Source of the DNA: Candidatus Heimdallarchaeota archaeon
GTDB lineage: Archaea; Asgardarchaeota; Heimdallarchaeia; Heimdallarchaeales; Kariarchaeaceae
Reading direction: 5' to 3'
DNA: 32,000 bases
Assembly: GCA_030149205.1 (NCBI GenBank)
Contig: JASBSB010000005.1
Span: 1-32,000, forward strand
Shown here: positions 2,594-6,060 of the stretch, piece after piece
How the letters are laid out: each line of letters begins with the position of its first letter
Numbering within the stretch: position 1 is the first letter of the stretch
Notes under the pieces: model-generated
Database searches by the model: none
Seen by the model: only the letters and a program-made list of their open reading frames with translations
What the model was told of the DNA's origin: nothing
Translations under genes and position numbers: made by a program

Positions 2594-3550
2594 TAAAGGC
2601 AAAAATAACAAAAATGCAAATTACAAATACTGCCAACTGACTGTCATAATTTTGACTGTTTTGATTCTATTGACTAACAAGTTACCACTTGCTGAATTGC
2701 AAAACCCACTATTATGGGGATTTCGATCTCTGGAATATTACACTTTTTTTATTTGTATATTTTCTATACTTTCTTTGAAATTCAGAGCTGTGGTTGGAGG
2801 CACAACAGTTGTTTCTTACAGAGTGGTGCATTTTTTAATTTCAGTGCTTAATCTGACCAATTTTTTGATCTCTAACTTTTTTATCTATGTTAACCTAATT
2901 TTGTATCTCAGAACTCTAACAGATAAATATAATATTGTTTTTTGTAAATTCACCTTAAAGAATCTAGTAATCTCCAGCATTAATCCTTGTTTCTTGTAGT
3001 GTTAAGTCAAATAGGATTCCCTTCTTGATTTTCAACTTTAGGGATTCAATTGTGTTTTTGCGTATAGCTACGGCTAAACGCAATTTTTTTTGAAGCTTGA
3101 ATTTGAAAATGTGATAATCTCAAAATTTAGGGTTAAAATTAATGTTTGTTATTAACATACACTCATAAACCTAATTGATCCAAAAAACAGACTGAGGGAC
3201 TTCATATGGAATCTCTTGTGAAAGCATTTCTTTTGCGTTGCAACAGAACTTTATATCTTGTAGGGATTGAGAGCGTAATATCTGACTTGGTCGTCATTAA
3301 AGACTTAGATGGTTGGATTTTACATCTAAATTGGATTTAGACTGTCCATTAATAAATTCAAACAAACTAACTTAAGCTGCATAGGGAAATACAAGGTTAA
3401 GAAACCATGCGTGAGATTATAACCATAGGATTAATCCAGTTGCTTACTTTACAACGTTTGTCTTATCTCCATGAACGAAGAAGTTTTGATATCAAAACTC
3501 AAAATTGATTGCTAAAATTATATGTTATTGTTAATATTCTAAATAAGGGA

Positions 3551-3745
3551 TTAATATCTGTTGTTTCTACGTGGGGGCCTCTTTGCTCTGTAGCAATCTT
3601 GACAGTAGACAGGTCTCACACCGTCTGGTTTGAAGGGAACTTGGGTTTCCTTACCACATTCTGAACAGACAACTGTATGCATTTCTCTGGGTTCTCTATG
3701 ACCTCTTTCGGGTCTTCTTTCTGATTCGTCATTGGAATAGCTCAT
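3551..3745 (-). CDS. CxxC-x17-CxxC zinc-ribbon small protein, copy 1 (64 aa)
   Basis: CSEC-x17-CQDC with the typical VPFKP..RPVYC pattern; GGTGA Shine-Dalgarno just upstream of the ATG. Confidence 0.9.
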   Translation of the reverse strand: MSYSNDESERRPERGHREPREMHTVVCSECGKETQVPFKPDGVRPVYCQDCYRAKRPPRRNNRY

Positions 3746-3858
3746 TCTATCACCATTTGTGTAATATTACGGAACTATTTTGATTTACAGTGAAAGGAAA
3801 GATAATTACGTAATCTACGATACAATATACTGTGTTGAAGTTTATAAAGGGTTGTTTA
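3746..3858 (-). promoter_or_regulatory. Conserved BRE/TATA promoter and structured 5' leader, copy 1
   Basis: TTTATAAA at 3841-3848; 27-nt block 3792-3818 identical to 4968-4994; palindromes ATTACGTAAT (3805-3814) and GTAATATTAC (3761-3770). Confidence 0.75.
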
Positions 3859-4199
3859 TGAATGAATTATTCTATCATTTGAATTAATTTTTTATTGATT
3901 CTCAATAAATTCATTTTAATTTTTAATATGGGATCCCACCTCTTTCTTCTAATCCTAAGAACCATATCTGTATTAATTTGGATGTACCATATACACATTT
4001 CAATCTCTACCAGGGTTAACATTCTATAGCAACCGAGGTCATTTTTCTAAGGGGAAATAACTATGCATTTTGATTTTCAAAATCTTGGAACTATCGGAGT
4101 GGACAATTTGATTTTTTGTTAGATTCGGCCTCGAATAACCAAAAAAGATTTGTACAAATTTCTTCATAATAGTTTCTATCTTTTGGAATGATTGAATTT

Positions 4200-4511
4200 T
4201 CATAAATTAGTTTCTGGATGTAATGAGAGTTTCACCTCTCTTAAAGTCTCAATTGTCTGTACGCCACCTTTTATGGATGGATCATTTTCCATTATATTAC
4301 GAGCCTCGTTAAGGCTGTCTGCTTTGAAGATGTAAATTCCGAATGGGCTACCCTCATCGATTATTGGACCTGCAAGATAGAGCTTGCCCTCTTTCTGTAA
4401 TTTTTGAAGATATTGAAAATGTTCACTCATCAGTTTCTCATCTTTTTCTGTAAAATTAGTCATGAAGTCTTCTTTATATGGTTTAGCTGTTGCAAAAAAT
4501 GTTTTGACCAT
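4200..4511 (-). CDS. YciI family protein
   Basis: EHFQYL...GKLYLAGP...GIYIF.ADSL.EA...ENDP pattern, 103 aa. Confidence 0.85.
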   Translation of the reverse strand: MVKTFFATAKPYKEDFMTNFTEKDEKLMSEHFQYLQKLQKEGKLYLAGPIIDEGSPFGIYIFKADSLNEARNIMENDPSIKGGVQTIETLREVKLSLHPETNL

Positions 4512-4738
4512 AAAAAATAACGTTCAGTTAATAATTTAAATTGATTGTTACGCTAGTGTTGGTTAGATTAAGAAATTAAAGTTTTGGAGATACCCGATAG
4601 TTGATTTTTTTTGGGTTTACAAGTTCTACTTAGTCTCAGTTGCAAGCATTGCTAATAGTTCAAAATGTTCGAATTTTAAATTTGAAACAAATTTTTTTGT
4701 TGTTTAAATTATATATTTTTTAATATTTTATTATTGAA

Positions 4739-4915
4739 TTAATATCTGTTGTTTCTACGTGGGGGTCTCTTTGCTTTGTAGCAATCTTGACAGTAGACAG
4801 GTCTCACACCGTCTGGTTTGAAGGGAACCTGGGTTTCCTTTCCACATTCTGCACATGTAACTGTGTGCATTTCTCTTTCGGATCTTCTATCTGAATCGTT
4901 GTTGGTATAGCTCAT
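4739..4915 (-). CDS. CxxC-x17-CxxC zinc-ribbon small protein, copy 2 (58 aa; absent from the ORF track)
   Basis: Hand translation: MSYTNNDSDRRSEREMHTVTCAECGKETQVPFKPDGVRPVYCQDCYKAKRPPRRNNRY, then stop; same GGTGATAGA-ATG start context as copy 1. Confidence 0.9.
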   Translation of the reverse strand: MSYTNNDSDRRSEREMHTVTCAECGKETQVPFKPDGVRPVYCQDCYKAKRPPRRNNRY

Positions 4916-5034
4916 TCTATCACCTGTTTTTATTTTGTAATATTACGAAACTATTTTAGTTTTCTGAGAAAGGAAAGATAATTACGTAATCTACTAATTA
5001 ATGGTAAACATGATGGTTTATAAAGGATTGTTTA
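4916..5034 (-). promoter_or_regulatory. Conserved BRE/TATA promoter and structured 5' leader, copy 2
   Basis: TTTATAAA at 5017-5024; 5017-5034 matches 3841-3858 at 17/18 nt; 27-nt block at 4968-4994; GTAATATTAC at 4937-4946; same 22-nt TATA-to-block spacing as copy 1. Confidence 0.75.
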
Positions 5035-5250
5035 GAATTAACTTTTCCAGCAGAAGAATAATCCAATCTCTACATCAGTCTCAGAAAATAAAGAAATTAT
5101 AAAGAATTCAGGGTGATTTAGGCTCTGCATCCTTTGAAAAGTTAGTACTATCCATAAAATTTTTAGAGAATAACTTGTTTGAGTTGATGGATCAATAATT
5201 CAAAGTGAAGAAATAATATTTTACAAAATCATCATGTGAATTCTCGTATT

Positions 5251-6060
5251 CTAATACTCCAGAAGTGTTCCACTTCTTCTGGCGTCCCTTTCTTTTTTGA
5301 GGTAATATTTTACACCAATATAGGGAAAAGCCACTGCTGAAATTAAGCTTATTATAATTTCATACTCAATGGGAATAATTGTCTGAATTACTCCATTTGT
5401 CGAAAAAGCAACTCCTCTCAGGGCATCCACATTGTAGGTGAAGGGAATCATTAATGCGATATAATACCCTGTCTCTGGTAAAGAAGAAACTGGAATAAAG
5501 ACTCCAGATAGAATTATCACAAAAAACGGTAGAAAAAAGGCAGCTCTTAAGCCAGTTTCTTTAGCTGTTATTGTAAATCCGGACATAAATATTCCAAACC
5601 CAAAAGACTGGGCAATTATACCTAAAAATAAAAGAGTAGACCATATTGGGTTATGTAAGGCTGGATTTCCAAATGAGATGAGAACAATAAAGTAATACAA
5701 CACAATAATTCCAACTAAAAATCCAGCCCTGACAAAGAGTACTCCCAATACTGAGGAAAATCTAGGTGCAGGCGATAAAAGTATTGATTCAAGTGTTCCC
5801 TGTTGTTGCTCCTCTGTTATTCTCATCGGGGCATCAGAAGAGATGCTCACAATCATAAAAATGACCATTCCCAGAAATACCTCAGGAGCAAAAGTTCTAG
5901 AATTAATGCCTCCTGTTGGTTGGTATAATATCGCAGTAAAAGCAAATATCAGTGTTAAGAAGAGAGGAAATACAATGGCCCCTAGAATTCGAGCTGGATA
6001 GCGAAGAAATATTATCCTCTCTTTATCTATCATGGCCAAAATAAGTTTGATGTATTTCAT
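5251..6060 (-). CDS. ABC-2 type transporter permease
   Basis: About six hydrophobic helices, EEQQQGTLESILLSP, LSGVFIPVSSLP and PFTYNVDALR motifs; 1-nt overlap with the upstream permease. Confidence 0.9.
   Translation of the reverse strand: MKYIKLILAMIDKERIIFLRYPARILGAIVFPLFLTLIFAFTAILYQPTGGINSRTFAPEVFLGMVIFMIVSISSDAPMRITEEQQQGTLESILLSPAPRFSSVLGVLFVRAGFLVGIIVLYYFIVLISFGNPALHNPIWSTLLFLGIIAQSFGFGIFMSGFTITAKETGLRAAFFLPFFVIILSGVFIPVSSLPETGYYIALMIPFTYNVDALRGVAFSTNGVIQTIIPIEYEIIISLISAVAFPYIGVKYYLKKERDARRSGTLLEY

Follow-up and report, generated by a model that had tools for sequence, protein, structure and literature searches.

The closest described counterparts of the leaders discussed here are the 5'-terminal stabiliser stem-loops of bacterial messenger RNAs (mRNAs), such as the E. 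coli ompA leader and the 5' stabilisers of Bacillus. The present leaders precede two genes for CxxC-x17-CxxC zinc-ribbon proteins, copies A and B, within positions 1 to 32,000 of contig JASBSB010000005.1 (GenBank assembly GCA_030149205.1, Candidatus Heimdallarchaeota archaeon); this whole stretch of 32,000 nucleotides (nt) is called the window. Like the bacterial stabilisers, they would place a helix at, or a few nt from, the mRNA 5' end, followed by an accessible ribosome-binding site and a highly expressed gene. Unlike them, they are archaeal, and their helix, instead of forming a simple hairpin, is a long-range stem that closes a loop of 23-100 nt. We know of no cis-acting mRNA element so far described from Asgard archaea.

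A second point of comparison is offered by the autoregulatory leaders of ribosomal-protein and L7Ae type, where the mRNA carries a mimic site bound by its own protein product. The window has the corresponding parts, that is, a gene for a small basic protein with a leader that is conserved and structured and has an invariant loop left unpaired; it differs in that no k-turn or rRNA-mimic motif was recognised in its leaders, which have no match in Rfam.

The long 5' untranslated regions (UTRs) of cspA type act as RNA thermosensors and autoregulated leaders of cold-shock genes (PMC5378194). As there, a long conserved leader is found on paralogs for a very small, probably nucleic-acid-binding protein; unlike there, the Shine-Dalgarno sequence (SD) is not alternately masked in both copies, and the window leaders have no sequence or structural similarity to the cspA type. 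Some archaea have many long 5' UTRs (in Methanolobus psychrophilus, 51% of leaders exceed 50 nt; PMC5378194), so that the length of the window leaders alone is unremarkable.

As for the proteins, Methanosarcina mazei has eight paralogs of the same family (TIGR04272/PF23477, zf_Tbcl_2), for which zinc binding has been shown, and family members are among its most confidently detected small proteins (PMC12704099), a level of detection consistent with zinc-ribbon genes built for high, stable expression. No leader RNA is described in that paper, and the window proteins differ from those of M. mazei by an Arg-rich C-terminal tail, KRPPRRNNRY.

In relatives of the order to which this archaeon belongs, an architecture recurs on the homologous genes: a segment at the predicted 5' end of the transcript is complementary to a segment just before the SD, even in leaders that cannot be aligned with those of the window, and this complementarity is tied in position to the predicted 5' end. 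The reading adopted here, tentatively and as one that may well be right, is that of a lineage-specific structured leader with a 5'-terminal helix. Judged from sequence, it would probably be an RNA element that controls messenger stability or translation. CxxC-x17-CxxC proteins are a widespread, abundant and functionally uncharacterised family; if the reading is true, a leader design that keeps structure over sequence across a Heimdallarchaeial order marks their genes as post-transcriptionally controlled. Should the element be a stabilising helix and nothing else, the addition to known biology would be modest. Leaders that recur on CxxC-x17-CxxC genes are a theme for comparative study.

A mosaic of conserved blocks upstream of both genes

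The genes, the promoters, the spacers and the ribosome-binding sites of the two copies are as follows.

3551-3745, minus strand: copy A gene, 64-amino-acid (aa) CxxC-x17-CxxC zinc-ribbon protein (open reading frame; TIGR04272 73.6 bits, PF23477 72.7 bits)
4739-4915, minus strand: copy B gene, 58-aa CxxC-x17-CxxC zinc-ribbon protein (open reading frame; TIGR04272 73.9 bits, PF23477 73.7 bits)
3840-3858, minus strand: copy A block of B recognition element (BRE) and TATA box, TAAACAACCC-TTTATAAA-C, with TATA at 3841-3848 (18/19 identical to copy B)
5016-5034, minus strand: copy B BRE/TATA block, with TATA at 5017-5024 (from the alignment with copy A)
3819-3839 (copy A) and 4995-5015 (copy B), minus strand: spacer of 21 nt from TATA to predicted transcription start site (TSS) (5/21 identical)
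3749-3754, minus strand: copy A SD, GGUGAU, with start codon at 3743-3745 (identical SD-ATG block; unpaired in the closing-helix fold)
4919-4924, minus strand: copy B SD, GGUGAU, with start codon at 4913-4915 (from the alignment)

The initial annotation described a single mosaic of blocks upstream of both genes, and the alignment of the two minus-strand regions bears this out. The BRE/TATA blocks share the consensus TAAACAAyCCTTTATAAAC (18/19 identical) and are followed in each copy by a spacer whose identity (5/21) is at the random level; it measures 21 nt, or 22 nt with the C after TATAAA included. Then comes a 27-mer, GTAGATTACGTAATTATCTTTCCTTTC, identical at 3792-3818 and 4968-4994 as annotated; its first base lies 30 nt past the TATA start in both copies, and a search of the 3.3-Mb genome that allowed up to 3 mismatches gave no further occurrence. 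A patch of 10 nt (5/10 identical) separates it from the block AAAATAGTTyCGTAATATTACA (21/22 identical), which precedes a 6-nt indel, the spacer from the 3' arm of the helix to the SD being 6 nt longer in copy B. The SD-ATG block, GGTGATAGAATG, is identical at 12/12 positions.

Conservation between the copies thus begins at the expected archaeal +1, past a spacer of fixed length and random identity, and ends at patches that are again free to vary. Each zinc-ribbon gene is predicted to be transcribed on its own, from an archaeal BRE/TATA promoter ~100 nt upstream. Transcription would start at the G located ~30 nt past the TATA start (3818 and 4994), giving leaders of 73 nt in copy A and 79 nt in copy B. 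Conservation from the expected TSS, an upstream promoter and a leader of 73-79 nt had all been proposed in the initial annotation, and the alignment supports them.

The identity of the blocks has to be weighed against the age of the duplication. The leader blocks are identical at 60/61 positions, which is only modestly above background because the coding sequences (CDSs) of the paralogs differ synonymously at just 5 of the 51 codons that specify the same amino acid; in the same comparison, zinc-ribbon orthologues of different species differ at 40-60% of shared codons. It could accordingly be asked whether there is any dedicated element at all: a recent duplicate, or gene conversion, would have left inherited promoter and UTR blocks in which a weak, AU-rich stem forms fortuitously. 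The low synonymous divergence suits this explanation, as do the ordinary folding energy of the leaders and the failure to find the motif in any other genome searched, among them three of the same genus (both below). What it does not predict, at ~10% neutral divergence, is a 21-nt spacer of the same length at 24% identity together with a 10-nt patch at 50%. The informative signal is thus the mosaic, in which identical blocks are flanked by patches of random identity. Identical blocks of 19-27 nt between unalignable patches appear too short for plausible conversion tracts, and the contrast would be hard to explain without selection. Given also that the architecture stands at the predicted 5' end in ~10 unrelated leader families and not in the control set, the absence of any dedicated element is regarded as quite unlikely.

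Some other views of the region were set aside. The 22-nt block can be read as a proximal BRE/TATA (TAATATTA) of a leaderless transcript, for which the spacing suits copy B only; it would put the start of copy A 6 nt into the CDS, and the SD is kept in both copies. A sigma-70 promoter scan scored below the shuffle mean and is irrelevant for an archaeon. A genome-wide histogram of TATA-to-ATG distances, meant to give the typical leader length, had too few counts and no peak.

The predicted closing helix

Within the leaders, the paired arms and the loop tract are located as follows; R1 is a covariance model built from the two window leaders, and MFE stands for minimum free energy.

3802-3818, minus strand: copy A 5' arm, GUAGAUUACG + AAUUAU, with predicted 5' end at 3818; contains the palindrome ATTACGTAAT (MFE fold; R1 98 bits)
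3792-3801, minus strand: copy A pyrimidine tract CUUUCCUUUC, unpaired in the loop, at the end of the identical 27-mer (alignment, MFE fold)
3761-3778, minus strand: copy A 3' arm, AUAGUU-C-CGUAAU-A-UUAC; contains the palindrome GTAATATTAC (MFE fold; alternative pairing with the SD/AUG region)
4978-4994, minus strand: copy B 5' arm, with predicted 5' end at 4994 (MFE fold; R1 109 bits)
4968-4977, minus strand: copy B pyrimidine tract CUUUCCUUUC (alignment, MFE fold)
4937-4954, minus strand: copy B 3' arm, AUAGUU-U-CGUAAU-A-UUAC (MFE fold)

In the predicted fold, a loop of 23 nt is enclosed by the first 17 nt of the leader and an 18-nt partner segment, the end of which lies 6-12 nt before the SD. 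This closing stem consists of 10 base pairs (bp) with one bulged A, one unpaired position and 6 bp, two of the 16 pairs being G·U. It is both the MFE and the centroid structure of RNAfold in the two leaders, in agreement with the long stem drawn in the initial annotation, and it leaves the SD and the AUG unpaired in the MFE structure of the leader alone in both copies. The folding energies are -8.1 and -10.3 kcal/mol, with z-scores of 0.02 and -1.12 against dinucleotide shuffles. R1 scores the sense strand at 98-109 bits and the antisense at 32-33 bits; the sense score is far above the antisense one because the two G·U pairs turn into A·C on the opposite strand.

We infer the TSS, the formation of the helix in vivo and an effect on stability or translation, and the mechanism would most likely run as follows. 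The 5' extremity of the mRNA would be locked in a helix whose partner strand ends shortly before the SD, while the A-rich spacer, the SD and the AUG would stay single-stranded. Such a helix would shield the mRNA 5' end from 5'-to-3' decay and hold the ribosome-binding site open, and the shielded end would favour stable, high expression of an abundant small protein. The decay nuclease concerned is presumed to be of the beta-CASP aRNase J/aCPSF2 type. The beta-CASP family includes archaeal 5'-3' exonucleases, and three of its genes are present in the genome (C2:468710, C4:641897, C2:492761). The conserved CU-rich loop might serve as a docking site for a factor: CU-rich tracts also lie in the loops of several other leader groups, and their recurrence makes a factor-binding site possible.

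A further local hairpin, GGUGAUAG / CUAU(U/A)CC, at 3735-3755 and 4905-4925 (minus strand), has the AUG in its loop and part of the SD in its stem; it is predicted in both copies with the closing helix formed.

The same architecture in relatives

The sequence of the window motif is one matter and its architecture is another. The motif was sought in 41 relatives, in 47 genomes of the order, and in 80 metagenome and 80 genome loci found with the protein; further loci came from the contigs of the closest proteins in a set of 5.8 billion (79-71% identity), and the fetched loci numbered ~240. Exact and fuzzy block searches over ~208 loci and blastn of the leaders returned no homolog of the window leader; the leaders of the closest proteins differ in sequence from it, and the motif is absent from the three same-genus genomes searched. 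Over 46 sources, R1 matched the two window copies and their antisense and nothing else. A 15-mer searched with 2 mismatches across the order's 47 genomes was counted as often as the reversed-pattern control and is uninformative. Rfam 15 gave 0 matches at gathering score over the whole window; at up to E=10 over 3400-5300, there were only weak snoRNA-like chance matches, none of which overlaps the leaders, and the initial annotation had likewise recognised no named RNA family. The window sequence motif is private to its genome, where it occurs in two copies, and it fails as a conserved RNA family, which is how it had been put forward. No paired position is substituted between copies A and B, and the two-copy window motif therefore shows no covariation.

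The picture differs at the level of structure. In nearly all homologs, a TATA box precedes the start codon by 60-190 nt, and in leaders that cannot be aligned with those of the window a segment starting ~25-30 nt past the TATA is complementary to a segment before the A-rich/SD region. Ten sequences form a first group, with GUAUAAUGAUU / AAUUAUUAUAU complementarity and an 11-bp helix; here pairing covers 95.5% of cells, a share that drops to 36-54% once the partner columns are slid, and there are many alternations of G·U and A-U. The second group (7 sequences) pairs UUGUAG... with ...CUACAA or CUGCAA in a 23-pair helix, where 87.6% of cells are paired, against 27-52% when slid, and one pair appears as UA, UG or CG. 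In both groups, the closing helix is the consensus structure of RNAalifold. Pairing of the 5' end with the pre-SD segment is also found in the homologs L230 (GUAGUUUAC / GUAAAUUA(G)C), L229, L231/L011, L008 (GUAAGUUUGA / UCGAGCUUAC, with two G·U pairs), L037, L016, L021/23, L007/9 and L236. Even the three same-genus homologs (L015:1463-1500, L028:1467-1503, L034:1522-1559), with predicted leaders of ~30 nt, have a hairpin first; their hairpins differ in sequence (AUCCGG/CUGGAU, ACCAU/AUGGU, CAAUCC/GGAUUG) and lead straight into an A-rich stretch and the SD GUGAUA/GUGAAA. Over the predicted leaders, the mean MFE z-score is -0.94 (n=39, not independent).

The tie to the 5' end was assessed by alignment-free position tests, with the leaders grouped in clusters. 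In 5.2 of 21 clusters (weighted), the best-pairing 12-mer for the pre-SD window is found 24-33 nt past a TATA-like motif, against an expectation of 1.0; the windowed form of this test gives p 0.02 (Fisher) and p 0.006 (Kolmogorov-Smirnov). In a blind-TSS test, the TSS was set at the TATA start + 29, the RNA was folded to the ATG, and the pairing of the first 6 nt with the 3' part of the leader was scored. The fraction so paired is 0.50 over 20 Heimdall-order clusters; it falls to 0.34-0.38 when the TSS is shifted by +3 or +6, which is still inside the arm, and to 0.04-0.25 for shifts of at least 10 nt. Homologs from Thermoplasmatota, Methanothrix, Bathyarchaeia and Bacillota, taken as the control, give 0.14 at shift 0 on a baseline of 0.01-0.16. 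The positional signal across relatives peaks at TATA+29, and the window leaders match this pattern, with a predicted helix from the first conserved base, the predicted TSS, 30 nt past the TATA start. Two weaker measures were dropped: the z-scores of whole-region duplexes, individually insignificant, were replaced by these position-based tests, and the comparison of sense and antisense duplex energies (sense better in 33/45, with noisy positions) was not used as evidence.

On this basis, there is a case of moderate strength, built on sequence comparison, that the window leader is one instance of a structure-conserved leader design in Heimdallarchaeia, with a 5'-terminal closing helix and an open SD. 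Several points weigh against it. The covariation is modest, the values observed in group 1 being reached by 16-18 of 500 shuffles and the covariation measures of group 2 being not significant. In the window, the closing stems are AU-rich and weak (-8 to -10 kcal/mol), with an energy no better than that of shuffles. The two motif copies stem from a duplication with low synonymous divergence of the CDS, and their identity may partly reflect recency or gene conversion. The TSS is a predicted one, the stabilising role of the helix is proposed by analogy, and both arms of the stem are perfect DNA palindromes, which the RNA model does not need.

These palindromes raise the question of whether the conserved blocks work as DNA. 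They could be operators bound by a dimeric transcription factor, perhaps the zinc-ribbon protein, which would repress the promoter from just past the TATA/TSS; the complementarity of the RNA would then be a by-product of two palindromes with a common half-site. The perfect 10-bp palindromes ATTACGTAAT (+5 to +14) and GTAATATTAC (+49 to +58) do share one half-site and are identical in both copies, the first just past the predicted TSS and the second 44 bp further downstream. Each is present 6-8 times in the 3.3 Mb, and the two stand together only at the two window loci. Both arms of the homolog L231 are also palindromic around one half-site. A site that overlaps the TSS or lies just after it is typical of archaeal repressors, which counts for an operator. 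Against this, the pairing reaches past the palindromes (GUAG/UUAC, AAUUAU/AUAGUU), and its two G·U pairs are mismatches in DNA. Neither palindrome is enriched in the genome (8 and 6, against ~12 expected) or marks another promoter, and operators would not account for the conserved CU tract and the 6-bp inner stem. Most other lineages have arms that pair, with many G·U, without being palindromic. In groups 1 and 2, many pairs are G·U in one sequence and A-U in another, or change among U-A, U·G and C-G, and few cells show A·C, a pattern that fits a sense-strand RNA and not a DNA inverted repeat. An operator is thus considered unlikely.

Another alternative keeps the RNA and makes it a switch. 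The 3' arm, AAUAGUUyCGUAAUAUUAC, would pair either with the 5' arm, with the SD open, or with the SD and first codons, GUGAUAGAAUGAGCUAU, with the SD closed. The balance might be set by temperature, by removal of the 5' arm, or by the Arg-rich zinc-ribbon protein if it binds the leader, for feedback or for cold/heat control. In copy A the two folds are near iso-energetic (-11.0 vs -10.8 kcal/mol with 12 nt of CDS, -19.3 vs -17.5 with 46 nt), and the sole substitution in the 22-nt block (C to U) preserves the alternative pair (C-G to U·G). In copy B, on the other hand, the closing-helix fold is favoured over the sequestering one by 4-6 kcal/mol, and the Heimdall homologs have no tendency to pair the pre-SD segment with the SD/start region (z-scores scattered around 0). 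Binding of the protein to RNA is purely hypothetical. Such a switch appears distinctly improbable. A classical RNA thermometer, the thermosensing role suggested in the initial annotation, is not supported because the SD is unpaired in the closing-stem fold, sequestration competes in copy A only, and general SD pairing is not seen in relatives. A cold-shock-domain gene (PF00313) was not found in the genome, which is 93.5% complete; this is in favour of the switch and keeps in play a speculative CspA-like role of the zinc-ribbon protein. One may imagine a feedback or temperature switch for an RNA chaperone of this kind, with the Arg-tailed zinc ribbon bound to the CU loop or 5' arm of its own mRNA while the 3' arm moves between closing the leader and masking the SD/AUG; this is a long shot, and very unlikely.

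With regard to the proposal of a regulatory RNA as a whole, the observation behind it is confirmed and its interpretation is partly supported. A predicted 5'-terminal helix is kept, with G·U pairs that hold on the mRNA strand only, by the otherwise unrelated leaders of relatives, and lends indirect support to a role at the RNA level; the motif itself is a two-copy one of ordinary folding energy, and a new conserved RNA with covariation is not what was found.

The zinc-ribbon genes and their proteins

Copies A and B are clear members of TIGR04272/PF23477, the CxxC-x17-CxxC "probable treble clef" zinc finger family: both exceed the curated cut-offs (36 bits for TIGR04272 and 27 bits for PF23477), and the CxxC-17-CxxC spacing is present in the translations. 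The two proteins are 86% identical, and theirs are the only genes of the family in the genome (3.3 Mb, 93.5% complete). One gene lies between them.

4200-4511, minus strand: YciI-like gene between copies A and B (PF03795, 54 bits)

It is outside the leader element and sets the tandem layout of the zinc-ribbon copies. The 3' flanks of the copies past the stop codons (3500-3550 and 4690-4738, minus strand) are ~70% alignable with indels over ~50 nt, with short T runs at the end; as they still align up to the T runs, the duplicated unit extends from promoter to terminator. A second Heimdall-order genome also has a tandem CxxC-x17-CxxC pair (L009 and L037, G012:C38), ~2 kb apart, with leaders unlike one another, in contrast to the window pair.

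A PDB sequence search with the zinc-ribbon protein gave no significant relative, the best relevant one being a Haloferax CPxCG zinc-finger protein (E=0.088). A search for longer, fused forms of the protein turned up double zinc ribbons and one TraG-like fusion only; with the query used, it gave no fusion to a helicase or a CSD.

No RNA run was among the sequencing runs listed as containing the stretch. From three other metagenomes, the contigs aligned to it are near-identical or fragmentary, without usable leader variation. Near-identical, low-depth contigs of 3450-5150 are present in a hydrothermal-vent metagenome and in a sediment metagenome from other studies, so that the species or close strains of it occur at more than one sampled site.

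A last point concerns multi-repeat relatives of these proteins. Five homologs of one genus (L020, L024, L029, L030 and L032; family f2, genus g11) have open frames of 328-445 aa with 4-6 CxxC-x17-CxxC ribbons, joined by linkers with many Arg-Ser, Arg-Asp and Arg-Gly repeats, for example RRSSDRRPSDRR, a composition that is SR-protein-like, here in Asgard archaea.

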